Below, in pieces: positions 1 through 64,000 of a DNA stretch of 64,000 nt. Numbering within the stretch: position 1 is the first letter of the stretch; each line of letters begins with the position of its first letter. Source of the DNA: Dehalococcoidia bacterium (GTDB lineage: Bacteria > Chloroflexota > Dehalococcoidia > Lucifugimonadales > UBA3495). The stretch lies in assembly GCA_965222025.1 (NCBI GenBank), contig CBDCTI010000007.1, forward strand, positions 409,882 through 473,881, given 5' to 3'. Position numbers and translations under genes: made by a program. Below the pieces are notes generated by a model. That model was not told the DNA's origin, did not search any database, and saw nothing but the letters and a program-made list of their open reading frames with translations.

Positions 1-793
1 GGGCCTCCCGGAGGGCGTAGGTCATGGAGATAGGGGCGGTGTGATGGTAGCTTCGGCTCTGACCCCAGTAGCTTTCCAAGTCCTGGAGGTTGAAGTAGAA
101 GCTCTGCACCTGGGTTTCCCGGGACTTAACGACCTTCATGGCAGACTCGTTGAGGGTGATTGGCGCCAGGCCCGGAGGGGCGCCGAGGCACTTCTGGGTG
201 CCGCTGTAGCATACGTCGATGCCCCAGTCGTCGACGCGCATGTCATGACCGCCCAGGGAGGTCACGGCGTCGACGATGGCCAGCGCACCGTGGCGATGGA
301 TTACGTCAATGATGTCGGGCAGGGGGGTCAGGACGCCGGTGGAGGTTTCGGCGTGGACCACGCCCACGGCCTTCACACCCGGGTGCTTGCTCAGCTCGTC
401 GTCCAGGGCCTGGGGATCTACCGGTCGGCCCCAGGGGGAGTCGACTTCGTAGACCATGGCGCCACAGCGTTCGGCAATGTTGCCGAGGCGGATGCCGAAG
501 TAGCCGTTGCGGCAGACGACCATGGTGTCGCCGCGCTCGAGGATGTTGGCGCAGGCGGTCTCCATGGCACCGGTGCCGGTGGCGGACATGGGCATGGTCA
601 TCACGTTGGAGGTGTGATAGACCTCGCGCAGCATGTCTCCGATGTCGTTCATTACCTGGAAGAAATCGGGGTCGAGGTGGCCCATCACGGGCAGGGTCAT
701 AGCCTGCAACACGCGGGGATGCACCGAGCTGGGGCCTGGCCCCAGGAGCAGCCGCGCGCTGGGCTGCAATTCGGTATGGTATGAAGCGGTCAC
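1..793 (-). CDS. class V aminotransferase (serine-pyruvate / alanine-glyoxylate aminotransferase-like); 3' end runs off the window
   Basis: I translated the minus strand from GTG 793..791, which has GGAGGG a few nt upstream. It reads VTASYHTELQPSARLLLGPGPSSVHPRVLQAM...MSATGTGAMETA...YSGTQKCLGAPPGLAPI. The gene is absent from the ORF track because no stop lies inside the window. The + ORF 41..784 is its antisense shadow. Confidence 0.8.
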   Translation of the reverse strand, partial: MTASYHTELQPSARLLLGPGPSSVHPRVLQAMTLPVMGHLDPDFFQVMNDIGDMLREVYHTSNVMTMPMSATGTGAMETACANILERGDTMVVCRNGYFGIRLGNIAERCGAMVYEVDSPWGRPVDPQALDDELSKHPGVKAVGVVHAETSTGVLTPLPDIIDVIHRHGALAIVDAVTSLGGHDMRVDDWGIDVCYSGTQKCLGAPPGLAPITLNESAMKVVKSRETQVQSFYFNLQDLESYWGQSRSYHHTAPISMTYALREA

Positions 794-873
794 GCTTGCC
801 CTCCAGAATTCATGCCGCCTTCCTGAAGACGGTCGACGGCAGTAGTTTTTGATCGTAGTGTCGATTGCGAGCC

Positions 874-901
874 GTAGGGGCGCACAGCTGTGCGCCCCTA
901 C
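874..901. terminator. perfect palindromic hairpin GTAGGGGCGCACA-GC-TGTGCGCCCCTAC
   Basis: 13+2+13 nt perfect inverted repeat seen directly. It lies downstream of the minus-strand SDR gene. The same core recurs at 14186 and 43608. Confidence 0.5.
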
Positions 902-987
902 ATTTCAGGTTCAGCCCCTATGAGCCCTCACCCGGACTCTGTCGCAAGAATAATGAGTGGGGTTGCTCACGCACAAGTGCTTCAGGT

Positions 988-1785
988 TTAGACGACGGCG
1001 GACGCTCCTCCGTCCAAGTTGACGGCAATGCCGGTCAGGTAGCTGGCGCGTTCGGAAGCCAGGAATGCGATTACATCGCCGGCTTCCTCGGGCTCGCCGA
1101 CGCGTCCCAGCGGCACCTGCCTACCGGCGGCCAACTGGTCGTAGAAGGTGTCGACGCTCAGGCTGGGATCGGACTGGATGCGGGCGTCGTAGCGTTTCTG
1201 GTGCTGGCCGCTCTTGATCAGCCCGATGCAGACGGTGGAGACCAGGATGTTGTCCTTGGCCAGGTCCTTGGAAAGCCCCTTGGTTATGGCGATGCCGGCG
1301 GCGCGGGAGATTGAGGTGGGCATGGAGGACGGGCCTGGGGTGCGGCCGCCGAGGTTGGTGACGTTGATGATACGGCCACCGCCGACCTTGCGCATCTCAG
1401 GGATGGACTGCTGGATCAGCCGGACAGCGCCCCAGACCTTGAGATCGAAGTCGTACTCCCAGTCCTGCTGCGAGACGTCCTCAAAGGGCTTGGCCATGGA
1501 GGTGCCGGCGTTGTTGACCAGAATGTCGACCCGGCCGAATTTGTTCAGGGTGTTTTCAACGATGCTCTTGGCGGAGCCTGGATCGGTGACGTCGGAGGAG
1601 ATGGACATCACCTGCCCCTCGGTGGCAGCGAGGATTTCCTGCTCGGCTTGGTCCAGGACGTCCTGGCGACGGGCAACGATGACCACCGCGGCGCCTTCCT
1701 GGGCCATGCTGAGAGCTGCGGCTTTGCCGATGCCATCGCTGCCGCCAGTGATGATGGCGACCTTATCCTGAAGTCCCAAGTCCAT
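988..1785 (-). CDS. short-chain dehydrogenase/reductase (SDR) family oxidoreductase
   Basis: ORF track. N-terminal VAIITGGSDGIGKAAA Rossmann motif, an NNAG motif, and typical SDR length of 265 aa. Confidence 0.85.
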   Translation of the reverse strand: MDLGLQDKVAIITGGSDGIGKAAALSMAQEGAAVVIVARRQDVLDQAEQEILAATEGQVMSISSDVTDPGSAKSIVENTLNKFGRVDILVNNAGTSMAKPFEDVSQQDWEYDFDLKVWGAVRLIQQSIPEMRKVGGGRIINVTNLGGRTPGPSSMPTSISRAAGIAITKGLSKDLAKDNILVSTVCIGLIKSGQHQKRYDARIQSDPSLSVDTFYDQLAAGRQVPLGRVGEPEEAGDVIAFLASERASYLTGIAVNLDGGASAVV

Positions 1786-1893
1786 GGCGCGCTCCCTGCC
1801 GGTGTGATTAGAAATAGTGCGGAGAAAATTATATCACAGGGTAAGCGATGTGGCCGATGCAGAGATGCCCGGCCCACGGGGCCCCAAGGGAGT

Positions 1894-2145
1894 GTCTGAA
1901 CTGTAATTTGTTTGGTTAGGGGTGGGCATGATTTTGGGTTGTTGGCTGGTCGTGGCGGGTGGCGGGGTGTTGGGGGTGGAGTTTTGTGGGGAGACGGGAG
2001 TTTTGCCGGGGGTGACATTGTCTGAACTGTGATTTGTTTGATTAGGGGATGGATATGATTTGGGGTCGTTGGCTGGTGGTGGCGGCTTGCAGGGGTTGGG
2101 CGTGCAGTTCTTGAGAGATACGGGGGTTCGGATTCGTGCTTTCGT
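1894..2145. repeat. imperfect tandem duplication, about 126-bp unit, G/T-rich on the + strand
   Basis: GTCTGAACTGTAATTTGTTTGGTTAGGGGTGGGCATGATTTTGGG... at 1894 recurs as GTCTGAACTGTGATTTGTTTGATTAGGGGATGGATATGATTTGGGG... at 2020. It is intergenic, between two minus-strand genes. Confidence 0.7.
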
Positions 2146-2168
2146 GGGAGGGACGGGGGTGCAGGGGG

Positions 2169-3140
2169 TTAGGTTAGCCAGGCATTCAGGGCTTCGCTGC
2201 CCGCGTGCTGTTGCAGGAGGGTGGCGTAGTGTCGGGTCTTGTGGAGGCTGTAGGGCGTGGACGCGTCGATGAGATGGTCGAGGGCGTCGGCGGTCTCGAT
2301 GGTGGAGGAGAAGACCTGAAGCAGGGGAATGTCGCGCTCCAAGGCTTCGGCTTTAATGTACTCTGTGGGCTCGCCGGGGCCGGTAAGCACCAGGCAGCGG
2401 GTCTGGGGGAGCATGCTGGCCAGCTGGATGTCGGGGCGCTGGGTTCGGGTGATGACGGCCTGGTTGGAGTAGCGTCCGTAGTAGGTTGGGCCGTGGTCCA
2501 TGATGTTGCCGCCGATGAGGAAACGTTCGACGGGTGCGTCGGCATTGACCGGCTCGAGGGTCCAGACGGCGTCCAGGTGGTCGGCGATCTGGGATACCGT
2601 TGTGGCCAGCATAATGCGGCTCTCGGGGATGATGACGGCGTCGACGTCGGCTGACGACTCGGCGGCGGATGCGGCTACGGCTTCCTGCCTGTAGGGAGGC
2701 ACGGCGTTGATCACCAAACATGCAAGGCGGTTGCCCCAGCGGCCGGCGGCGTGGTCGGCTGCCGCGGCCCAGTCGCGGTCGGGAGTGTAGGAGACGATCT
2801 CCAGCACGCGGGCTGCAGTCTCTTCGGCCAAGTCGGCACCGAGAGGGCTGTTGGGGATCTCGACGATTACCGTTCCGGACTGGTCTCGCAGCAAGGAGAC
2901 GTCCGCGGCGGCGTCCTCCACATCGCTGGTCATCGGGCCCGGCGCGGGGCCAACGGTGATCCCGAGGGCGTCGGCGAGGACTCGAGAGGCGAAGGCGTGG
3001 TCATCGTCGGAATCGGCAGACCGTGAAAACGGTTTGGAGTAGGCAGCGGGTAAGCCAGCGTCGCGCAGGTGGGCCAAGAGGCCCGCAGCGAGGCTGGTCT
3101 TGCCGGAGCTGGCGGTGCCGGTTATGAGGATGGCGGGCAT
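2169..3140 (-). CDS. BioD-like P-loop plus DRTGG domain protein (phosphotransacetylase N-terminal-domain-like)
   Basis: ORF track. N-terminus MPAILITGTASSGKTSLAAGL (P-loop). The C-terminal CLVLTGPGEPTEYIKAEALERDIPLLQV resembles a DRTGG domain. Confidence 0.6.
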   Translation of the reverse strand: MPAILITGTASSGKTSLAAGLLAHLRDAGLPAAYSKPFSRSADSDDDHAFASRVLADALGITVGPAPGPMTSDVEDAAADVSLLRDQSGTVIVEIPNSPLGADLAEETAARVLEIVSYTPDRDWAAAADHAAGRWGNRLACLVINAVPPYRQEAVAASAAESSADVDAVIIPESRIMLATTVSQIADHLDAVWTLEPVNADAPVERFLIGGNIMDHGPTYYGRYSNQAVITRTQRPDIQLASMLPQTRCLVLTGPGEPTEYIKAEALERDIPLLQVFSSTIETADALDHLIDASTPYSLHKTRHYATLLQQHAGSEALNAWLT

Positions 3141-3167
3141 GGTGCCTGGGTTCGCCTGCGCCCCGAC

Positions 3168-3869
3168 CTAGACGCCGACGTCGAGGAATTCAATGTTGTA
3201 GGGGTCGAATCCCTTGGGGAAAGTGGTGGTGTTGTCCCACTTTGCGAGGGTGAAGTCGGCGCGGTGGAGGCTGGCCTGATCGAAGTTTGCGCCGGTCATG
3301 TTGGCGGCGATCCACATGGAGTCGCGGATCATGGCGCGGGTGAAGTCGGCGCCGGCCATGCTGCAACGAGAGAGATCGGCGCCGTTCATGTTGGTGGAGA
3401 CGAATACGGCGCCGGTGAGGTCGGCGTTGCGCAGGTCGGCCTCAATCATGTTGGACTGGCTGAAGTCGGTACCCTGCAGATTGCAGCCGATGAGGGAGAT
3501 GCGGTTCATGCGGCAGTGGCGCACGACTGCTCCCGACAGGTTCGCGCTCTTCAGGTCGGCCCAGAAGAGGTTGACGCTGGTCAGGTTGGCTCTTGAGAGG
3601 TCGGCACCGGACAGCGAGGCGCGTCCCAAGTCTGCCCTTTCCAGATTGGCACCGGAAAGGTTGGCAGCGGGGATTCCGATCTGGGTAAGGCGGGCATCAG
3701 CCAGGTTGGCACCGGAGAGGTTGACTTTTTCCAGCCTGACTCGCGCCAAGTCGATACCGGTCAGAACGGCTTCGCTGAGGTCCAGTTCCGTCTCGGGGTT
3801 GTCGGCCCGCCACCGGGCGACGGCATCCGAGCCGGCGCTCACGAGGGCCACATGCTCCGGGTTAGCCAT
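3168..3869 (-). CDS. pentapeptide-repeat protein
   Basis: Tail of ORF 3168..4148, starting at the internal ATG 3869..3867 (MANPEHVALVSAG...). Long run of A(D/N)LxG-type pentapeptides (NLSGANLADARL, ANLSGANLERADLGRASLSGADLSRANL...). The Arg-rich 93-aa extension in the track overlaps the selenoprotein gene and was rejected. Confidence 0.8.
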   Translation of the reverse strand: MANPEHVALVSAGSDAVARWRADNPETELDLSEAVLTGIDLARVRLEKVNLSGANLADARLTQIGIPAANLSGANLERADLGRASLSGADLSRANLTSVNLFWADLKSANLSGAVVRHCRMNRISLIGCNLQGTDFSQSNMIEADLRNADLTGAVFVSTNMNGADLSRCSMAGADFTRAMIRDSMWIAANMTGANFDQASLHRADFTLAKWDNTTTFPKGFDPYNIEFLDVGV

Positions 3870-3916
3870 GGCTCCCACCCTCGCCCACTGGTTTTTGTAC
3901 CCTTGAGGCGGCGGGG

Positions 3917-4201
3917 CTAGGCATCTTCGAGGTCGAAGAGCTTTTCGGCGATGGTCATCTTGAGCTCGTTGACTTTGCCGAGGTCGGGGAAGCCACCGTC
4001 CGTCTTTCGGTCGAAGATTACGTCGCCGTCGAGGTACACCTCGAGACGGCCCCTGTCGGAGGGAGTCATCTTGATGGCGACATCGCCGGGTGCGTCGGAC
4101 TTGAAGAACTCCGTCGCCAGCCACGTGGCGACCGGGAAGTAGCCTCAAGCCACACAGTAGACAATTTCAGCTTCGACCTTGCCGTGTTCGGAACCTGGCA
4201 T
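3917..4201 (-). CDS. SelW/Rdx-family selenoprotein (CxxU), in-frame TGA at 4147..4145 read as selenocysteine
   Basis: I translated MPGSEHGKVEAEIVYCVA-U-GYFPVATWLATEFFKSDAPGDVAIKMTPSDRGRLEVYLDGDVIFDRKTDGGFPDLGKVNELKMTIAEKLFDLEDA. The YCxxU motif and the G.LEV..DG.VIF.RK..GGFP core are typical of Rdx/SelW proteins. The frame stays open for 75 codons beyond the TGA, and a hairpin lies 12 nt downstream of it. Confidence 0.75.
4113..4132 (-). promoter_or_regulatory. candidate bacterial SECIS hairpin
   Basis: mRNA GUCGCCA-CGUGGC-UGGCGAC: a 7-bp perfect stem with a 6-nt loop. It starts 12 nt 3' of the in-frame UGA. Confidence 0.55.
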
Positions 4202-4245
4202 GTTTCTCTTCTCTACTTTTCGTGTGGTGGTAGCAATGTGCGGTA

Positions 4246-4635
4246 CTAAGCCGCTGAGGCCAGATTCCTGGCCTCCTGAATGTAGGAATCAGTGTCCCGA
4301 ATGAGTGCTGTCATTTCCTCTTCAGGTTCGCAGTTGCCGTCGTAGAAGCAATTGATGTGCAGCAACGCTGCCCTGGTGTGGTACTGGCCCTGAAAAGCCT
4401 CGAATGCGGATCCGTTATTACTCATTCGGAACAGGGCGCGGCGCGCGGCTCCTGCGGATTGCGGCTCGTTTTCAGTTCGTGCCAAGACCATGGCATCGGT
4501 GGAGCGCTTGGTTGCGCCCCAGGCTTTTTCGGCGGCGTTGCGGAGCTTGCCGTGGTCGAGCATTTCCAGCGCGTCGACATACAGAAACTGCGCGTCTGCG
4601 AAGAGTTCGCTCACCCGGTCGGTGGTAGTTGCCAT
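4246..4635 (-). CDS. PaREP1-like HEPN-superfamily protein (putative RNase), paralogue 1
   Basis: ORF track. AAEKAWGATKRSTDAM helix and a C-terminal RAALLH (R-x4-H) motif. Clear paralogue of 34262..34657. Confidence 0.6.
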   Translation of the reverse strand: MATTTDRVSELFADAQFLYVDALEMLDHGKLRNAAEKAWGATKRSTDAMVLARTENEPQSAGAARRALFRMSNNGSAFEAFQGQYHTRAALLHINCFYDGNCEPEEEMTALIRDTDSYIQEARNLASAA

Positions 4636-4683
4636 CTAATGGTCCAAATATCTTCTCTAAATATCTTGCTGGATGGGGAGTAG

Positions 4684-5106
4684 CTACCCGATTACGGCGG
4701 TGCCGATGCCTATGGCGGTGCGGTCGCCATCCTGGTTTTCGCAGAACAGGTTGACGGTGACGTGGGTGCCGTCGTCGGCCTGTTGCTGTCCCGACACCTC
4801 GCCGGTCACGGTGATGGTGTCGCCACCCTTGACGGGGCGCAGGAACTTCAGGTTGACGGTGCCGGTGTGGTTGAAGACCTCGGGGCCGAAGAACCGGCGC
4901 AGGCTCTCGGCGGCGAATGCCACGGACATACGGCCCGAGGCAATCGGGTAGGTGGTGCCAAGGCGCTGCTGGGCCAGCTCGGGGTCGTTGTGGATGTTCT
5001 GTCGGTCGAGGATGCCGCAGTTCTCAAACTGGTTGATGGTGTCCTGGGTCACGGCCTTGGTGACCGAGGGTATCTGCTGGCCGGGTGCTATGTCTGCGGA
5101 TGCCAT
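4684..5106 (-). CDS. MaoC-like (R)-hydratase hotdog-fold protein
   Basis: ORF track. NIHNDPELAQ hydratase-type motif, 140-aa hotdog size, paired with an upstream hotdog gene. Confidence 0.75.
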   Translation of the reverse strand: MASADIAPGQQIPSVTKAVTQDTINQFENCGILDRQNIHNDPELAQQRLGTTYPIASGRMSVAFAAESLRRFFGPEVFNHTGTVNLKFLRPVKGGDTITVTGEVSGQQQADDGTHVTVNLFCENQDGDRTAIGIGTAVIG

Positions 5107-5513
5107 TTCTTGCCCACCTCGTCCGGCTTTTTCATCTGGTAGGTGCGTAGCTTCTCGAGGAGCCGGCCGTCCTCGTCGACGGCGGTTGCCTCGATGACCA
5201 TGTAGGGCTTGTCGCGGCGGAGGTACTTGTCGGCAATGCGGCCGGTGACGCGGACCTTCTTGCCCGGGATGGGCGGGTTGAAGAACTCGACCTCGTTGCC
5301 TGCGTTGACACCGCCTGTGTTGTCCTCGTAGACCATGGCGAAGGCGGTGGCGTCGTGCTTCACAGCCAAGGTGGGGAAGACGGCGTCCGAGTCGCTGATG
5401 GAGGCGCGGAAGTTATCCAGCATCTCCTGGGTCAAGGTGTACTCGTAGGAGCCGAGTTCCTCGCCGATTTCGATCTTGTCGTAGTCGAAAAGCTTCACTT
5501 CTTGATCGGGCAT
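5088..5513 (-). CDS. MaoC N-terminal-type hotdog-fold dehydratase subunit
   Basis: Tail of ORF 5088..5591 from ATG 5513..5511 (MPDQEVKLFDYDKIEIGEELG...). It overlaps the downstream MaoC gene by 19 nt, which suggests a heterodimeric hydratase pair. Confidence 0.65.
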   Translation of the reverse strand: MPDQEVKLFDYDKIEIGEELGSYEYTLTQEMLDNFRASISDSDAVFPTLAVKHDATAFAMVYEDNTGGVNAGNEVEFFNPPIPGKKVRVTGRIADKYLRRDKPYMVIEATAVDEDGRLLEKLRTYQMKKPDEVGKKWHPQT

Positions 5514-5714
5514 AAGCCGCTCCCCGGCTGAAGGCCGACGGTGTCTGTATATAGTTGCGTATACGATACTTACTTTGCCCATGCCAGTCAACGACGGGTA
5601 CGAGGCCGCCAGCCAAGAAAGGTCGCGATGCTATAATTTGTGTTGAGTGATAATCGAAATTACGGATTGTATACGGGTTTGTAAACGAGGCGGACTAACG
5701 CCTACAGGCGGTGA

Positions 5715-6518
5715 TTGCAGGAAATGGACCTTTACTTCGACCGAGGCGACCGAGGCAACCCGGTTGGGCACGCGCTGCTGTACTTCAGAGTGGATACCGA
5801 GCCGGACAAGGTCTACGCCAGTTATGTTGTGACATTGCCGATCAAGTCGGACCTGACGAAGTTCCTGCCGCCGTTTCTCGCGTCGCACCTTGGGGCGCTG
5901 CCGCTGAACGACCTGTCGTCCTTCGCCATGCCGCCAGTTCCGGAGCCAGTGGACGGGCTGGGCGAGCTGGAGAAGCTGAGCCGGCAGAGGGGCGACGACC
6001 TGGTGTACGCGGGCAGCATGTTCTCCTATGACCTGCCGCGGATGATGGAATCGGTGACGGAGGCGGTGTCGGGCTACGCTGAGCTGTACGCCGCCTCGGG
6101 CAAGGGGGCGACGGTGGCAGGAGGGGCTGCCATCGTGGAAGGGGAGAGCCTGCCTTCGGCCGACGAGCCGGAGGATGACCTGGACTCGTCTTTCAACGTC
6201 AACGACGTGCTATTCAGCTTCATGAGCGAGAGCGACAAGCTGGGCGAGCTTTCGCGGCTGCTGGGACGCTTGCGCTTCGCCGTCGAGGGAGCGGACCGGG
6301 CAGCTGCCGACGAAGTGGGAGAGGAGATCAGCGCGCTGGCCCGCCACCTGCCCGTGGAGTTCCAGGTGGCGAACCTGCTGGCGGTTGCCCGGGACACGTC
6401 GGAGCGAAGCTCGGAACTGGCGAAGCTTTACCTGGACCGATGCTTCCGGCTGTCGGCGGGAGAGACCAGGCAGGCCGCGGAGCTGGAGGCGGAGATCCGG
6501 CGCCTGCAGGGGGAGTAG
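5715..6518 (+). CDS. hypothetical protein with an acidic C-terminal half
   Basis: ORF track only; no motif recognised. TTG start at 5715, alternative ATG at 5724 (MDLYFDRGDRGNPVGHALLYF...). Confidence 0.45.
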   Translation: MQEMDLYFDRGDRGNPVGHALLYFRVDTEPDKVYASYVVTLPIKSDLTKFLPPFLASHLGALPLNDLSSFAMPPVPEPVDGLGELEKLSRQRGDDLVYAGSMFSYDLPRMMESVTEAVSGYAELYAASGKGATVAGGAAIVEGESLPSADEPEDDLDSSFNVNDVLFSFMSESDKLGELSRLLGRLRFAVEGADRAAADEVGEEISALARHLPVEFQVANLLAVARDTSERSSELAKLYLDRCFRLSAGETRQAAELEAEIRRLQGE

Positions 6519-6567
6519 GGGAAGGGATGCCCACGGAAAATCGTGTGGCTGGAAACCTGGAAACCCG

Positions 6568-7047
6568 ATGATTCTATTGGACATACCCCAAGGCGCAATC
6601 ACAATTGCGTCGGCTATTCTGGTGGCCTTCACCGGGGCCATATTGACGTTGGGCATCTGGGTGTTTCGCCTTCTTTACGCCATTCAAGGGAGGGTGACAG
6701 CGCTGGAGACCAAACTGGAACCTCTCGAAATAGAACGAGTTGCTTCTACTAATGCCAGGGTGGATATAATCTGGGACGAGTTCAAGAACCAAGGAATACC
6801 AAATTTGCGAAGAGGGGCAGACCCGCCCGGGAATCCGATGCTACAAGAACGTTGGGACGAACTTCTAACGAAGCTGGAACACGACGAGCTGCCAGACGAT
6901 GAGGCTGAAGAGCTGCTCGCGGCGCTCTTGAAACGTCGCGAGCAGGCAAGGGAAGAAGATGACGTAGTAACAAATATGCTTCTCGGACCGGGCATCGTCT
7001 TGACGAAGTGGCGGTTGAAGGAAAAGGAACTCCGGGAACAGAAGTAG
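6568..7047 (+). CDS. hypothetical membrane-anchored coiled-coil protein
   Basis: Internal ATG of ORF 6385..7047. It reads MILLDIPQGAITIASAILVAFTGAILTLGIWVF (one TM helix) followed by a charged helical region. Visibly AT-richer than its neighbours. Its stop abuts the recF start. Confidence 0.45.
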   Translation: MILLDIPQGAITIASAILVAFTGAILTLGIWVFRLLYAIQGRVTALETKLEPLEIERVASTNARVDIIWDEFKNQGIPNLRRGADPPGNPMLQERWDELLTKLEHDELPDDEAEELLAALLKRREQAREEDDVVTNMLLGPGIVLTKWRLKEKELREQK

Positions 7048-8289
7048 GTGCGTCTTTCCGGGCTGCGGCTGAGCAATTTTCGGAACCTGGTTGAAGTGGA
7101 CCTTGAGATACCGATGGGAGTGTCGGTCTACTTCGGTGAGAATGCGCAGGGAAAGACGGCGCTGGTAGAAGCGGTGTACATTCTGTCTATCGCGCGGTCA
7201 TTTCGAGCCGAAAACGAACGGGAGCTGGTCAACTTCGCGGAAGCGCACGACGGTGGGCTGGCGCTGGTGGAGGGGCTCCTTGAAGATGACGAAGATCCGT
7301 CCTCCCGCCAGCGGATCATCGTTGGCTACAAGGTCTCCGAGTCGGAGGCCGCGGGTGGGCCGGGTTACCGGGTCAGCAAGGAGATTCGGGTCAACCGGAT
7401 TAGGCGCACCGCCGGGGGATTGGTTGGGGTGGTGCATGCGGTGCTGTTCAGCGCCCTGGACATCGAGCTTATCCAGGGGCCGCCATCGGGTCGCCGCAGA
7501 TTTCTCGACATCCTGCTGTCGCAGGCAGACCCGCAATACCTAAAGTCGCTGCAGCGTTACCAGCAGGTGCTGAGGCAGCGCAACCGTTTGCTCCGGTTGC
7601 GGCGCGAGGGGCGGGCCGCGCCCGACGAGATGCAGTTCTGGGACGATGAGCTGGTCAATGAAGGCGCGTGGCTCACCTGGCGGCGCCACGAGGTGATGGA
7701 ACTGCTACAGACGGCCTGCGCCGAGCAACACCGTGACCTGAGCAGTCCGGGCGAGGAGCTGGAGCTGTGGTACCGCTCAAGCGTTCCTCTGACGTCGGAC
7801 TCTGAAGGCATGATTGTCAGCTACCACGAGGCGCTGCAGGCTTCCGCGTCCCGCGAACGGGCCACTGCGGCCACCGCTGTCGGACCGCATCGGGATGATT
7901 TTGAAATTGTCGTCAACGGGTTGGACATGGGGGCGTTCGCTTCCCGGGGTCAGGCGAGGACGCTGGCGTTGTCGCTCCGGCTAGCTGAAGCGGAGACGCT
8001 GTCGGCGGTACGCGGGACGAAGCCGCTACTGCTCCTGGACGACGCGCTGTCGGAGATGGACGCTTCCAGGCGGTTCCGAGTGCTGGAGAAGGCGTCCCAA
8101 TATCCGCAGGTGCTGATCACCACCACCGACCCTGAGCAGGTCTCCGGGTTCTTTGGAGCAGGGGCGACGTATTTCAGGGTTGACGGCGGGCAGGTTACGC
8201 CACTGGAAGGAAATTTGAGTGCTGGCAGGCCCAATTTCAGGGGAACTGCTACCGTAGATAGCCCGGAACCAGCTGAAGGTCAAGGTTAA
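7048..8289 (+). CDS. recF: DNA replication and repair protein RecF
   Basis: ORF track. MRLSGLRLSNFRNL...FGENAQGKTALVEAV (Walker A) and a C-terminal LLLDDALSEMD signature. Confidence 0.9.
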   Translation: MRLSGLRLSNFRNLVEVDLEIPMGVSVYFGENAQGKTALVEAVYILSIARSFRAENERELVNFAEAHDGGLALVEGLLEDDEDPSSRQRIIVGYKVSESEAAGGPGYRVSKEIRVNRIRRTAGGLVGVVHAVLFSALDIELIQGPPSGRRRFLDILLSQADPQYLKSLQRYQQVLRQRNRLLRLRREGRAAPDEMQFWDDELVNEGAWLTWRRHEVMELLQTACAEQHRDLSSPGEELELWYRSSVPLTSDSEGMIVSYHEALQASASRERATAATAVGPHRDDFEIVVNGLDMGAFASRGQARTLALSLRLAEAETLSAVRGTKPLLLLDDALSEMDASRRFRVLEKASQYPQVLITTTDPEQVSGFFGAGATYFRVDGGQVTPLEGNLSAGRPNFRGTATVDSPEPAEGQG

Positions 8290-8413
8290 GGGTGTGTGCG
8301 CAGTTGCCGGGTTCTCTGCTTGGCCTGTGGGGCATCTAGTGAAAACCATTCCCCTTTCCAAATCCCAAGTGGTAGTATTTCCGCAAATTACTATCACGCT
8401 CTCGTGGTGAAGC

Positions 8414-10675
8414 ATGCCCGTAACCCAGGAAATTCTGGACGAAATCGCTCTTACGCGCACGGAATACGACCTGATCGTGGAGCGGCTGGGCCGTGAGCCC
8501 AACCCTGTAGAGCTGGGCATGTTCGGGGCCCTGTGGAGCGAGCATTGCGGCTACAAGCACTCCCGACCGCTGTTGCGGATGTTCAACCACACGTCGCCCG
8601 TGGTGCTTTCCGAGACGGGTGCGGAGAACGCGGGGGCGGTGGACATAGGTGACGGGCTGGCGGTGGTGTTCAAGGTCGAGTCACACAACCATCCATCGGC
8701 CGTGGAGCCGTTCCAGGGCGCGGCGACGGGCGTGGGCGGCATCGTTCGGGACATACTGGCGATGGGTGCCCGGCCCATCGCGCTGCTGAACTCGTTGCGA
8801 TTCGGGCCTCTGGACGACCCGGAGAACGGGGCGGTGAATAAGCACCTGTTCGGTGGTGTGGTGCGGGGGATCTCGTGGTACGGGAACTGCATCGGCGTGC
8901 CGGATGTGGGGGGGGAAATCTACTTCGATCCATCCTACTCGCACAACCCGCTGGTGAATGCCATGTGCGTGGGGTTGATCAAAAAGGACCGTCTGGCATC
9001 GGCGGCGGCGCGGGTGCCGGGCAGCGTGCTTCTGCTGGTGGGGGCCGACACTGGACGAGACGGCATCCACGGGGCGTCTGGCCTGGCATCACGTACGTTC
9101 GAGGAGGAGGCGGAGCTCAGACCCACAGTGCAGGTGGGCAATCCGTTCCTCGAGAAGGTGTTGATCGAAGCGTGCCTGGAGGCGCTGGACACTGGTGCGG
9201 TGCTGGCGATTCAGGACCTGGGGGCGGCTGGGCTGACCAGCGCGTCTATCGAGTCGGCGGCGAGGGCCGGACGCGGCCTACGCATGGACCTGGCGCAGGT
9301 GCACCGTCGTGAGACGGGGATGAACGCCTATGAGGTGATGCTGTCGGAATCGCAGGAGCGGATGCTGCTGGTGACCCTGCCGGAGCGCGTGGACGAGGTC
9401 AGGAAGGTGTTCGATCGGTGGGATGTGGACTGCCGTGATATTGGACGGGTGATCGCGGAGCCCGAGGCGCAGATTTTCGACGCCGCCCGGTCCGTGGCAC
9501 ATCTGCCGATTCAGCCGCTTTCCGAGGCTCCGGCGTACAGGCTGGAAGGCAAGCCGTCGAGCGATGACGTGGCCAGGCGTGAGATGTCGCTGGCCGACAC
9601 ACCGCTTCCGGAGTGTGGGCCTGCGGGGACGCTGCTGCGCCTGCTGGCGTCGCCGAATATTGCCAGCAAGCGGGCCGTGTACCAGCAGTACGACCACCAG
9701 GTGCAGACAAACACGGTGGTTGGTCCGGGCGGCAGCGATGCTGCGGTGCTGCGGGTGAAGGGAACGCTGAAGGCGATCGCCGTGGCAGTGGACGGCAACG
9801 GTAGGCACTGCTTCCTTGACCCGTTCGTCGGCGGTCAGATTGCGGTGGCCGAGGTGTGCAGGAACATCAGCTGCACCGGCGCGCGTCCGTTGGCACTGAC
9901 GGACTGCCTCAACTTTGGTAACCCGCTGCGGCCAGATATCTATTACCAACTGGAGGAGTGCATCCGTGGGATCTCGCTGGCCAGCGAGATGTTGGACGCC
10001 CCGGTGGTAAGCGGCAACGTGAGCCTGTTCAACGAAACGCAAGGGCAGGCGGTGCATCCGACGCCAGTGGTGGGCGCGCTGGGGTTGCTGGAAGATGCAG
10101 CCAAGACCGTCGGTGCGGGCTTCCCGAAGGAAGGGCTGGCGGTGATGTTGCTGGGCCCTGGACTGGGGGGCGCGTCGACCCAGGATCTGGCGGGAAGTGA
10201 GTACCTGAGCGTGATGCATGACCTGACGGCGGGGCTGCCCTTCATCGACATCGATCTGGAGCGGCGAGTGCAGGAGACCTGCAGGGAGGGCGTGAAGCAG
10301 GGTCTGGTGCTCTCGGCCCACGACTGCTCGGACGGCGGGCTGGCGGTTGCGCTGGCCGAGTGCTGCATCCTGGGCGGCGTTGGCTTTCGTTTCGAAGCAC
10401 CCCTGGAATCCCTGTCCCGCTGGGACGCGGCACTGTTCGGGGAAAAGCAGTCGCGCATTGCAGTGTCGGTGGACCGGGACAGGATGCACCTGGTGCAGGA
10501 CCTGGCCCACGCCAATGGAATCCCGGTTTCGATACTCGGGTTTACCGGTGGGAACTCGTTCCTGATCGATAGCAAAGATGGGGAAGGCGCCACCACCGGA
10601 GGAGGCGTGAACCTTCCGGTCGCCGAGCTTGCCGCTGTCTGGACGGGGGCCCTGGAGGAGGCTGCGAGTGGGTAG
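8414..10675 (+). CDS. purL: phosphoribosylformylglycinamidine synthase subunit PurL
   Basis: ORF track. EPNPVELGMFGALWSEHCGYKHS and VESHNHPSAVEPFQGAATGVGG are hallmark PurL motifs. 753 aa. Confidence 0.92.
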   Translation: MPVTQEILDEIALTRTEYDLIVERLGREPNPVELGMFGALWSEHCGYKHSRPLLRMFNHTSPVVLSETGAENAGAVDIGDGLAVVFKVESHNHPSAVEPFQGAATGVGGIVRDILAMGARPIALLNSLRFGPLDDPENGAVNKHLFGGVVRGISWYGNCIGVPDVGGEIYFDPSYSHNPLVNAMCVGLIKKDRLASAAARVPGSVLLLVGADTGRDGIHGASGLASRTFEEEAELRPTVQVGNPFLEKVLIEACLEALDTGAVLAIQDLGAAGLTSASIESAARAGRGLRMDLAQVHRRETGMNAYEVMLSESQERMLLVTLPERVDEVRKVFDRWDVDCRDIGRVIAEPEAQIFDAARSVAHLPIQPLSEAPAYRLEGKPSSDDVARREMSLADTPLPECGPAGTLLRLLASPNIASKRAVYQQYDHQVQTNTVVGPGGSDAAVLRVKGTLKAIAVAVDGNGRHCFLDPFVGGQIAVAEVCRNISCTGARPLALTDCLNFGNPLRPDIYYQLEECIRGISLASEMLDAPVVSGNVSLFNETQGQAVHPTPVVGALGLLEDAAKTVGAGFPKEGLAVMLLGPGLGGASTQDLAGSEYLSVMHDLTAGLPFIDIDLERRVQETCREGVKQGLVLSAHDCSDGGLAVALAECCILGGVGFRFEAPLESLSRWDAALFGEKQSRIAVSVDRDRMHLVQDLAHANGIPVSILGFTGGNSFLIDSKDGEGATTGGGVNLPVAELAAVWTGALEEAASG

Positions 10676-47640: not shown

Positions 47641-48006
47641 TTAAATATACAATTGCCCCTGCTCCAGTGGGACAGAGCGGGTTCTGCTACTTTGGCGAGC
47701 CCTACGCCTAGGGGGCAGGGGCGGAACCTCGGATCCTGCAGAAACACGTCGCAGATGGCGTTCCATGAATTCTCGGGCAGTTGTTTTGATCCACTTGTTT
47801 GAAGTGACGACTACTCTTCCTCCCTCCGGATTGTTCCTGAACCATTCCGTCCATTCGTCGTAAAAAACGGTGATTTTCCCCAAGGCTTGTACGCAAGATT
47901 GACTACTATCGCCGGCGATCCTGAGAATGCGCCCTCCATGGTGGTAAATCTCTGGGAACAGCCGCATTTCGGTGGCTATGTCCCTGTGCTTGTCATGACA
48001 CACTAG
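47641..48006 (-). pseudogene. C-terminal fragment of the disrupted DUF5615 (PIN-like) toxin gene
   Basis: Part of ORF 47641..48117 downstream of the CTA codon at 48006..48004: VCHDKHRDIATEMRLFPEIYHHGGRILRIAG... It joins in frame with the fragment 50943..51090. Confidence 0.55.
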
Positions 48007-48155
48007 TATTACAACGACGCTTCGCAAGAAAGGGACCCTGAGTACCTCTTCATAGCGACCTGCCCACGCCCGTGACAGCCTTGCGGCCTTGCCTTTCGCG
48101 AAGCGATTTCCGGCCAAAAACTGACTAGATTATGGAAGCGTCGTTGTAATACTAG
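48003..48155. mobile_element. MITE-like palindromic element, copy 1 (145-bp body between CTAG tetranucleotides)
   Basis: The terminal inverted repeat CTAGTATTACAACGACGCTTC ... GAAGCGTCGTTGTAATACTAG is 21 bp. A second copy lies at 62987..63139. Confidence 0.65.
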
Positions 48156-49306: not shown

Positions 49307-49380
49307 TTCATCCCGACCACTATAGGGCTATTGGCCGGATTACCGAAGGACTTTCAACATCAAAGTTGACAGAGTACTAG

Positions 49381-50942
49381 CAGCCCGTCCGAGAAACGGG
49401 GTTGGTGAGCCGTTGGGGGTATGATGGTACGGAGCATCAGACGATCGGAGCGGTCAATGAGCAAGACCTACCTTCCCTACGACCCGGACCAGCAGTTGCT
49501 GCTGCCGGCGGCCCTCCAGGAATGGCTGCCGCCGGAGCACTTGGCCTACTTCATCTCCGACGTTGCGGACCAGTTGGACCTCTCGGACATCACCGCCCGC
49601 TACGAGCAGGAGAGGCGGGGCGGCCCGCCCTACCATCCCAGGATGATGGTGAAGGTGCTGCTCTACGGCTACTGCACCGGCGTGGCCTCCTCGAGGCGCA
49701 TCGCCCAGCGGCTGCACGAGGACATCGCCTACCGGGTGCTGGCGGCGAACAACACGCCGGACTTCCGCACCGTCTCCGACTTCCGAAAGGACCATCTGGA
49801 GGCGTTGGGGGAATTGTTCCTGCAGGTGCTGGAGTTGTGCCAGCAGGCAGGACTGGTAAAGCTGGGGCACGTGGCGCTGGACGGGACCAAGGTGAGGGCC
49901 AATGCCTCAAAGCACAAGGCGATGAGCTACGGGCGGATGAAGGAGAAGGAAGCGCGGTTGCAGGCCGAGGTGGACGAGTTGCTCCGCAAGGCGCAGGAGG
50001 TGGACGAGGAGGAGGACCGCCGGTACGGGAAGGACAGGCGTGGGGATGAGTTGCCGGAGGAACTGGCCTTCCGGGAGGGACGGTTGCGGAAGATAAGGGA
50101 GGCCAAGGCGGCGCTGGAGGCCGAGGCCCTGGCGGATGCGGAGCAGGCTGAGTCCGAGGGACGCAATCATCTCGGGGTGCCTGATGACAAGGCGCAGCGG
50201 AACTTCACCGACCCGGACTCCCGGATCATGCCCGGCCCGGGAGGGAGGGACTTCCAGCAGTCCTACAACTGCCAGGCGGTGGTGGACAGCGAGCATCAGG
50301 TGATCGTGGCGGCCTGTGCCACCGATCAGCCCTCGGACAAGGATCAGGCCGTGAGCATGATTGAGGAGGCCATCCTGAACGTGGGCACAGTCCCAAAGGA
50401 AGTCTCCGCCGACGCCGGATACTACTCGGCCAAGGCGGTGGAGGAACTCTACGCCCTGGGAGTGGACCCGTTCGTCGCGCCGGAGAGGACCCGCCACGGC
50501 TGGGTGCCGCCACCGGCGCCCCGTGGCCGCATACCGAAGGGGCTGTCAGCCAAGGACCGGATGCGGCGCAAGCTGCGGACGAAACGGGGCAGGGAACGCT
50601 ACGCGCTTCGGATGGAGACGGTGGAACCGGTATTCGGGCAGATCAAGCAGGGCCGGGGCTTCCGGCAGTTCCTGCTGCGGGGTCTGGCTAAGGTGAACCG
50701 GGAGTGGCTGATCATCTGCGCCGGCCACAACCTGCTGAAGCTGTTCCGGTATGGGGCCGGGATGTTCGTCAAGGCGAGGGGAAAAGGCGCCACTGGGAAC
50801 GACAGGGAGACGCGCCGGTCCATGGGCAGTGGGATTTTCAAGCGACAATCCGCAGGTGCCTACCCGCACCCCGCCAGAACCGTTGTCGCAGGGTAGTCCC
50901 GGCTGACCGACACCGCCAGTCGGTCAATCCTCAGACGGGCTG
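49381..50942 (+). mobile_element. IS1182/IS5-superfamily insertion sequence, copy 1 (1562 bp), flanked by CTAG
   Basis: The ends are CAGCCCGTCCGAG... and ...CTCAGACGGGCTG (imperfect inverted repeats). CTAG lies at 49377-49380 and 50943-50946. A near-identical copy begins at 63140. Confidence 0.8.
49457..50896 (+). CDS. IS1182-family DDE transposase
   Basis: ORF 49421..50896 from ATG 49457: MSKTYLPYDPDQQLLLPAALQEWLPPEHLAYFI...PPYHPRMMVKVLLYGYCTGVASSRRI...PDFRTVSDFRK. Confidence 0.85.
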   Translation: MSKTYLPYDPDQQLLLPAALQEWLPPEHLAYFISDVADQLDLSDITARYEQERRGGPPYHPRMMVKVLLYGYCTGVASSRRIAQRLHEDIAYRVLAANNTPDFRTVSDFRKDHLEALGELFLQVLELCQQAGLVKLGHVALDGTKVRANASKHKAMSYGRMKEKEARLQAEVDELLRKAQEVDEEEDRRYGKDRRGDELPEELAFREGRLRKIREAKAALEAEALADAEQAESEGRNHLGVPDDKAQRNFTDPDSRIMPGPGGRDFQQSYNCQAVVDSEHQVIVAACATDQPSDKDQAVSMIEEAILNVGTVPKEVSADAGYYSAKAVEELYALGVDPFVAPERTRHGWVPPPAPRGRIPKGLSAKDRMRRKLRTKRGRERYALRMETVEPVFGQIKQGRGFRQFLLRGLAKVNREWLIICAGHNLLKLFRYGAGMFVKARGKGATGNDRETRRSMGSGIFKRQSAGAYPHPARTVVAG

Positions 50943-62986: not shown

Positions 62987-63139
62987 CTAGTATTACAACG
63001 ACAGTTCGCAGGAAAGGGACCTCGAGCACCTCTTCATGGCGACCCGACCACGCGCTCGACAGCTTTGTGGCCTTGCATTCCGTGAAGCGATTTCCGACCA
63101 AAAACTGACTAGATTATGGAAGCGTCGTTGTAATACTAG
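62987..63139. mobile_element. MITE-like palindromic element, copy 2
   Basis: Same 145-bp body between CTAGs as copy 1. The last 45 bp are identical to copy 1, while the first ~100 bp carry about 18 substitutions. Confidence 0.65.
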
Positions 63140-64000
63140 CAGCCCGTCCGAGAAACGGGGTTGGTGAGCCGTTGGGGGTATGATGGTACGGAGCATCAGA
63201 CGATCGGAGCGGTCAATGAGCAAGACCTACCTTCCCTACGACCCGGACCAGCAGTTGCTGCTGCCGGTGGCCCTCCAGGAATGGCTGCCGCCGGAGCACT
63301 TGGCCTACTTCATCTCCGACGTTGCGGACCAGTTGGACCTCTCGGACATCACCGCCCGCTACGAGCAGGAGAGGCGGGGCGGCCCGCCCTACCATCCCAG
63401 GATGATGGTGAAGGTGCTGCTCTACGGCTACTGCACCGGCGTGGCCTCCTCACGTCGCATCGCCCAGAGGCTGCACGAGGACATCGCCTACCGGGTGCTG
63501 GCGGCGAACAACACGCCGGACTTCCGCACCGTCTCCGACTTCCGAAAGGACCATCTGGAGGCGTTGGGGGAATTGTTCCTGCAGGTGCTGGAGTTGTGCC
63601 AGCAGGCAGGACTGGTAAAGCTGGGGCACGTGGCGCTGGACGGGACCAAGGTGAGGGCCAATGCCTCAAAGCACAAGGCGATGAGCTACGGGCGGATGAA
63701 GGAGAAGGAAGCGCGGTTGCAGGCCGAGGTGGACGAGTTGCTCCGCAAGGCGCAGGAGGTGGACGAGGAGGAGGACCGCCGGTACGGGAAGGACAGGCGT
63801 GGGGATGAGTTGCCGGAGGAACTGGCCTTCCGGGAGGGACGGTTGCGGAAGATAAGGGAGGCCAAGGCGGCGCTGGAGGCCGAGGCCCTGGCGGATGCGG
63901 AGCAGGCTGAGTCCGAGGGACGCAATCATCTCGGGGTGCCTGATGACAAGGCGCAGCGGAACTTCACCGACCCGGACTCCCGGATCATGCCCGGCCCGGG
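63140..64000 (+). mobile_element. IS1182/IS5-superfamily insertion sequence, copy 2 (truncated by the window end)
   Basis: Collinear with 49381 onward, with only about 5 substitutions over 860 bp, mostly synonymous in the transposase frame. Confidence 0.85.
63216..64000 (+). CDS. IS1182-family DDE transposase, copy 2, partial
   Basis: ATG 63216 corresponds to ATG 49457. Not listed in the track because no stop lies before the window end. Confidence 0.8.
   Translation, partial: MSKTYLPYDPDQQLLLPVALQEWLPPEHLAYFISDVADQLDLSDITARYEQERRGGPPYHPRMMVKVLLYGYCTGVASSRRIAQRLHEDIAYRVLAANNTPDFRTVSDFRKDHLEALGELFLQVLELCQQAGLVKLGHVALDGTKVRANASKHKAMSYGRMKEKEARLQAEVDELLRKAQEVDEEEDRRYGKDRRGDELPEELAFREGRLRKIREAKAALEAEALADAEQAESEGRNHLGVPDDKAQRNFTDPDSRIMPGP

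Follow-up and report, generated by a model that had tools for sequence, protein, structure and literature searches.

A probable SelW-like/Rdx selenoprotein gene with an in-frame TGA in a marine SAR202-type bacterium

Does the TGA codon that interrupts a short minus-strand reading frame in this Dehalococcoidia DNA end a gene, or does it encode selenocysteine (Sec)? The stretch analysed here, 64,000 nucleotides in length (the window), had been described in a preliminary way as containing a hidden selenoprotein gene of the SelW/Rdx family at positions 3917..4201. SelW-like proteins with a C-x-x-U motif were described as a family of bacterial selenoproteins in 2006 or earlier (PMC1794560); they were catalogued by Zhang, Gladyshev et al. 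(PMC1794560, PMC2398784) and are the most abundant selenoprotein family of marine bacteria. SAR202 and other Dehalococcoidia occur in large numbers in sponges and the deep ocean, and according to recent catalogues they are among the most selenoprotein-rich bacteria. Here, we report that 3917..4201 is, with high confidence, a genuine SelW-like/Rdx selenoprotein gene of known kind from a marine SAR202-type bacterium. The novelty lies in the corrected gene model, as the family and its recoding mechanism are already known.

The reading frame starts at an ATG (4201..4199, minus strand), reaches the TGA at codon 19 (4147..4145) and proceeds through 75 further codons to a TAG (3919..3917). Its translation is a product of 94 residues, MPGSEHGKVEAEIVYCVA[TGA]GYFPVATWLATEFFKSDAPGDVAIKMTPSDRGRLEVYLDGDVIFDRKTDGGFPDLGKVNELKMTIAEKLFDLEDA. 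All of the coordinates, the translation and the hairpin position given in the preliminary description were reproduced when the sequence was re-read directly. The features of the locus are as follows.

3917..4201, minus strand: complete coding sequence of a probable SelW-like/Rdx selenoprotein (translation; PF10262 and TIGR02174; ATG in 81/81 orthologues; conservation flanking the TGA).
4145..4147, minus strand: TGA, probably decoded as Sec, at position two of the C-x-x-U motif (present in 80/80 genome loci and in L081; aligned to the second Cys of CxxC).
4154..4156, minus strand: TGT codon of Cys16, the resolving partner in C-x-x-U (invariant Cys; aligned to the first Cys of CxxC in solved structures).
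4206..4213, minus strand: Shine-Dalgarno-like purine-rich run GAGAAGAG, 5-12 nt 5' of the ATG (from the sequence; putative function).
4113..4132, minus strand: bacterial SECIS hairpin within the coding sequence (5' arm 4132..4126, GUCGCCA; loop 4125..4120, CGUGGC; 3' arm 4119..4113, UGGCGAC).
3168..3869, minus strand: downstream pentapeptide-repeat gene, with its likely start at ATG 3869, 47 nt past the Rdx stop, and GGGAG just upstream of that start.

Gene callers miss or shorten the Rdx gene because its selenocysteine is written as the stop codon TGA. As had been pointed out, the gene is absent from a mechanical list of open reading frames, which gives just 3168..4148 and a 50-residue remnant at 3917..4069. 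The former had been held to mask the Rdx gene from another frame. It does lie in another frame, and its upstream part is a spurious 5' extension of the pentapeptide-repeat gene: all Pfam Pentapeptide matches listed for it lie past ATG 3869, and no further domain comes from the 93-residue extension. A DRTGG/AAA_26 gene lies beyond the pentapeptide-repeat gene, and PaREP1-like and MaoC-like genes lie upstream of the Rdx gene (Pfam); a similar gene order is found in L081, a JGI contig. The gaps of 44-47 nt between the Rdx gene and its neighbours would be compatible with co-transcription, and neither promoter-like sites nor minus-strand terminator-like sites were found near the gene. The PaREP1-like gene, just upstream (window 4246-4635, minus strand), matches Pfam PaREP1 (PF05942) with 38.3 bits against a cutoff of 24.4; according to Pfam this is an archaeal family, and here it occurs in a bacterial genome.

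Membership of the Rdx/SelW family, which had been suggested from the redox motif and a distal sequence block, is borne out by two profiles. With Cys placed at the TGA, the product scores 56.6 bits against Pfam Rdx (PF10262; cutoff 22.6) and 48.8 bits against TIGR02174, 'CXXU_selWTH' (cutoff 34.2), and the 75 residues that follow the TGA reach 38.1 bits by themselves in the Rdx HMM. The score against NF041051, a Campylobacter-type equivalog, is 51, below the cutoff of 88; thus, the gene is not of the Campylobacter-type subtype. Six solved structures of the Rdx family were matched by sequence using phmmer (Atu0228 2fa8, 2obk, 2p0g, 2oka, 2ojl and 3dex), with homology across the domain and E values from 1.2e-10, for the best match 2fa8, to 1.3e-6. 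Owing to this homology, a thioredoxin-like fold is predicted for the Rdx product. In the alignments of 2fa8, 2obk, 2p0g and 2oka the redox motif occupies the same place, the GGFP block lines up and the C-x-x-C falls exactly on C16-V-A-[TGA19]. The TGA therefore does sit on the second redox position, as had been claimed, and the Cys-containing homologues that had been proposed for comparison exist: these solved proteins carry CxxC, with Cys where the Rdx gene has UGA/Sec. Since Cys replaces UGA/Sec in them, the Cys-form Rdx proteins need no recoding signal.

The closest known system is that of the bacterial SelW-like selenoproteins (PF10262, TIGR02174). They belong to the same HMM family and share the C-x-x-U motif, the in-frame UGA and a SECIS within the coding region, and Sec forms dominate among them, as they do here (82/82). 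Nothing substantive differs; the present gene belongs to a SAR202/Dehalococcoidia branch, whose SECIS is unusually invariant across the clade. Mammalian selenoprotein W (2npb) and the SelT/SelH/Rdx12 group belong to the same Pfam family (Rdx) and have the same CxxU chemistry; the sequence match is weak but detectable (E = 0.0031). Eukaryotic Sec insertion relies on a SECIS in the 3' untranslated region together with SBP2 and eEFSec, whereas here, in the bacterial manner, the signal hairpin lies within the coding sequence, immediately past the UGA. The biology of the locus is thus as expected, with the commonest marine selenoprotein family and a standard bacterial recoding signal.

A scan for orthologues, with one genome per species, gave 157 related stretches, of which the best 80 were analysed (L001-L080). 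All 80 are from Dehalococcoidia, Chloroflexota or 'SAR202 cluster' MAGs, many with names of sponge or marine type. Together with L081 and the window they form a comparison set of 82 sequences with 62-100% protein identity. A TGA stands at the aligned codon in 82/82 sequences, and no Cys form (TGC or TGT at this codon) was seen among these SAR202-type sequences. The ATG start is kept in 81/81 orthologues. Cys16 is written TGT in 29 of the 81 orthologues and TGC in 52; a stricter Shine-Dalgarno core (GGAG, GAGG, AGGA or AAGG) is present in 51/81, with a purine-rich run at the same place in those inspected. Three residues ahead of the TGA (Gly53, Lys54 and Val55) and three past it (Gly85, Gly97 and Leu99) are invariant, at a codon entropy of 1-2 bits; residues that are kept while their codons vary are a mark of translation, here of the Rdx frame on both sides of the TGA.

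These data bear directly on the reading of the TGA as a nonsense mutation or sequencing error in a pseudogene of a Cys-form Rdx gene. A single base substitution turns TGC or TGT into TGA, and the window itself contains no Sec machinery. Nevertheless, each of the 82 assemblies, independent of one another and as low as 62% in protein identity, has the TGA, with TGC or TGT in none, and the 75 codons after it are open and under purifying selection. Nor can the orthologues be copies of one contaminant, because they comprise 81 distinct gene sequences in different flanks. We regard such a lesion as vanishingly improbable.

Termination at the UGA, with the real product being the 65-71-residue protein of the databases, started at an internal codon past the TGA, is a second reading. 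Public annotation speaks for it at first sight: the 120 closest public entries listed are nearly all fragments of 65-71 residues that start past the TGA. However, the internal start is not conserved. The ATG that comes first past the TGA occupies six different columns of the orthologue alignment, which shows that an independent downstream reading frame is not conserved, and in the window this ATG lies 26 codons downstream and would give a product of just 50 residues. Moreover, protein-level conservation extends over the 18 codons that precede the TGA, which share its frame and stand behind the conserved ATG, and the region lost from the short product contains the CxxC active-site motif, as judged from the alignments to solved structures. 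Orthologues that stop at this codon would have spoken for termination, and there are none: the TGA is kept in 81/81 related loci, with purifying selection on either side. Termination is accordingly an extremely improbable account of this gene, and readthrough of the UGA is preferred.

Among the same 120 listed entries, none holds the correct model. Three are full-length (P0001, P0002 and P0015), each with W at the Sec position. The DNA underlying P0001 (L081, 8001-8297) has TGA at the position of the W; we therefore read the W entries as translations with TGA as Trp, in the style of genetic code 4. Some of the shortened orthologues carry the JGI label 'predicted Rdx family selenoprotein'. The short models lose the active site, and correct ones are needed for counting selenoproteins and for assessing selenium dependence in SAR202 and other Dehalococcoidia.

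Three side observations concern the sequence around the UGA and the copies of the gene. The first is the immediate context of the codon. The base before the UGA is U in 73/73 distinct sequences while the residue that it belongs to varies (Ala GCU, Ser UCU/AGU, Pro CCU), and GG invariably follows the UGA in these 73 sequences (window 4144-4148, minus strand; columns 6-11 of alignment A1); protein conservation alone does not account for this U-UGA-GG context. The second is the contrast with the surroundings. Between the window and L001-L025 the Rdx protein shows 91-100% identity, with full identity in L001, L002 and L004, and an 84-nt stretch around the UGA is identical in DNA to the window in L001 and L002, whereas the flanking DNA (window 1-9800 against L001-L025, partial alignment) is 78-85% identical. 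The Rdx gene is far more conserved than its neighbourhood. The third is that the MAG NORP26 has the Rdx gene on two contigs, L042 (NVWX01000048.1) and L043 (NVWX01000037.1), with identical proteins; this reflects either a duplication or redundancy from assembly or binning.

The preliminary description had pointed to a SECIS-like hairpin 12 nt 3' of the UGA. In the model of a 2026 review, a bacterial SECIS is a stem-loop whose upper stem has 4-16 bp and whose apical loop has 3-9 nt, with a G at one of the first two loop positions, usually followed by G or U; the loop lies 16-37 nt from the UGA, and the minimum free energy is at most -7.5 kcal/mol (PMC13188914). The window hairpin, which begins 12 nt 3' of the UGA, agrees with all four of these published criteria: its loop of 6 nt has G-U at positions 2-3, its stem has 7 bp, the UGA and the loop are 19 nt apart and the energy is -10.6 kcal/mol. 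Across the comparison set, 75/82 sequences pass on all four counts and the remaining seven miss narrowly. As a control for chance, 11,139 in-frame codons from confident genes of the window were put to the same hairpin test: some qualifying hairpin was present for 9.6% of them, and one equally strong for 2.2%. A hairpin in one sequence is thus weak evidence, as 2.2% of the control codons match its strength. Likewise, a 66-nt context folded against shuffles gave z = -1.6, which is not significant alone, and an Rfam search of the hairpin region at a permissive threshold gave no bacterial SECIS family and only a chance snoRNA match (E = 5.3).

The comparative evidence is stronger. Within the hairpin, codons are frozen at four-fold sites, with Ala as GCC in 81/81, Thr as ACG in 63/63 and a second Ala as GCG in 78 and GCA in 3 sequences; other four-fold codons of well-conserved residues mostly have a codon entropy of 1.3-1.9 bits. 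All three GCA sequences carry GTT in place of GTC on the opposite arm, so that a C-G pair becomes U-A. This pair, 24-39, is C-G in 59 sequences, the intermediate U-G in 11 and U-A in 3. With the proposed pairing 95.9% of the cells are paired, against 15-72% with slid partners. Strict covariation is sparse, amounting to four changes on both sides, a number reached by 3/500 shuffles. Conservation of the TGA and of the synonymous sites of the hairpin is far beyond chance, and these data support selection on RNA structure beyond the needs of the protein. In 3.5 Mb of sequence, 82/83 matches of the SECIS core motif after TGA codons are the Rdx gene itself; the core is thus not a motif shared with other genes.

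The hairpin resembles known bacterial SECIS elements, among them that of E. coli fdhF, in being a stem-loop 3' of the UGA, with a small loop holding a 5' G and then U and a spacing of 16-37 nt (PMC13188914). There is no resemblance in sequence, which is usual among bacterial SECIS elements. The SelB route is presumed to operate here. In the mechanism that we propose, a ribosome would meet the UGA at codon 19 of the Rdx mRNA, and the hairpin 12 nt downstream, with its loop C-G-U-G-G-C, would recruit SelB and Sec-tRNA(Sec), by analogy with other bacteria. Selenocysteine would then be inserted in place of termination and 75 more codons would be translated. The product would contain the motif Cys16-Val-Ala-Sec19 in a thioredoxin-fold redox protein, which would probably cycle between the selenolate/thiol and a Cys-Sec selenenylsulfide as a thiol-dependent oxidoreductase.

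Such decoding requires Sec machinery in the lineage. The 64-kb window holds no tRNA-Sec (tRNA-Trp only, and no Rfam tRNA-Sec), and tblastn with E. coli queries, of which those for SelA and SelD were NCBIfam-validated, found no selA, selB or selD in it. The single SelB-like tblastn match among the window and the 81 loci, in L080, proved to be EF-Tu. A scan with an alignment of four Dehalococcoidia SelA proteins did find a SelA (L313) on the contig CBDFLW010000004.1 (4,073,395 bp), with 543.6 bits against a cutoff of 267.9 for TIGR00474. The same contig carries L019, a TGA-bearing Rdx orthologue of 95% identity. SelA is probably encoded on seven more Rdx-bearing chromosomes (OZ253565.1, OZ250156.1, OZ242013.1, OZ241328.1, OZ220473.1, OY282565.1 and OZ252223.1). 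The flanking DNA of the SelA-bearing Rdx genomes is 79-85% identical to the window, as close as any compared. In the relatives checked, neither other sel genes nor tRNA-Sec turned up within 10 kb of SelA.

For the tRNA, a generic bacterial tRNA-Sec pattern gave, within its first 120 matches, two Dehalococcoidia tRNA-Sec genes; ARAGORN and Rfam (70 bits against 47) confirmed both. A 26-mer shared by the two occurs at 72 loci (L142, L145 and L202-L271), all from Chloroflexota/Dehalococcoidia, with three 'SAR202 cluster' MAGs among them. Clusters of selD-selB-tRNA-Sec-selA are present at several of the 72 loci, and the best flank around the tRNA-Sec is common to just 25/72 loci by synteny. BSepDB, where a species needs two or more of SelA, SelB and SelD to be admitted, lists 49 selenoprotein genes for 'Dehalococcoidia bacterium UBA1141' (PMC13326102); UBA1141 is the source of L054, an Rdx orthologue with the TGA. 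Sec machinery exists in the lineage. None of the 80 Rdx genomes is among the 72 exact 26-mer loci or the first 120 generic matches, and the SECIS sequence is almost invariant across 62-100% protein identity. One conceivable, though unlikely, explanation is that the Rdx-bearing SAR202 clade has a non-standard tRNA-Sec and an unusually sequence-specific SelB-SECIS interaction. More plainly, the tRNA-Sec of the Rdx clade may be one or two bases off the exact-match patterns.

The remaining reading accepts that the UGA is decoded and denies that it is decoded as Sec: a near-cognate or suppressor tRNA would insert Trp or Cys, or the Sec pathway would insert Cys under scarce selenium. Three database entries have W at this position, and the presence of selenium in the Rdx product is deduced here from sequence. 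However, the W entries are artefacts of translation, as the P0001 locus carries TGA and its translation does not give the database protein, and Trp would destroy the redox motif. A general suppressor is not at work, nor is genome-wide reassignment of UGA in play, because 16/50 long open reading frames of the window, many of them with a high GC content at third positions, end in TGA as an ordinary stop. The conserved SECIS, which fits the published model, points to SelB-dependent decoding. In addition, relatives carry SelA, and to our knowledge the sole role of SelA is in making Sec-tRNA(Sec). Decoding as another amino acid is therefore very unlikely, and selenocysteine is the preferred residue at codon 19.

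Some minor observations were made on the tRNA-Sec loci. In L202 (6950-7012, minus strand), a Chloroflexota selD-selB-tRNA-Sec-selA cluster, the SelD has an in-frame TGA in the context S-C-A-G-TGA-A-G-K-A-G-P-G; because this TGA sits at the active-site position, we read the L202 SelD as a selenoprotein. The standard call of open reading frames cuts it to 18 residues. The 3' 26-mer of tRNA-Sec occurs twice within a few kilobases in L252, in L263 and in L211 and L221, which are on the same contig (CAZAPT010000003.1); the pairs suggest duplicated tRNA-Sec genes in some Dehalococcoidia contigs. Several tRNA-Sec variants among L202-L271 have the anticodon loop CUUCAAC, with C for A at the last position of the usual CUUCAAA.

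Elsewhere in the window, a GC3 filter gave 31 candidates for other coding frames interrupted by TGA. By peptide context they mostly look antisense to real genes, none contains a redox motif and they were rejected. The window also contains an 867-bp direct repeat of 99.4% identity (49375-50241 and 63134-64000), whose second copy runs off the window end. A 153-bp stretch of 88% identity (48003-48155 and 62987-63139) lies just upstream of each copy. The gene within the repeat (49421-50896) encodes a DDE transposase (DUF772 and DDE_Tnp_1), and we therefore read the repeats as two copies of one insertion sequence about 13.8 kb apart.
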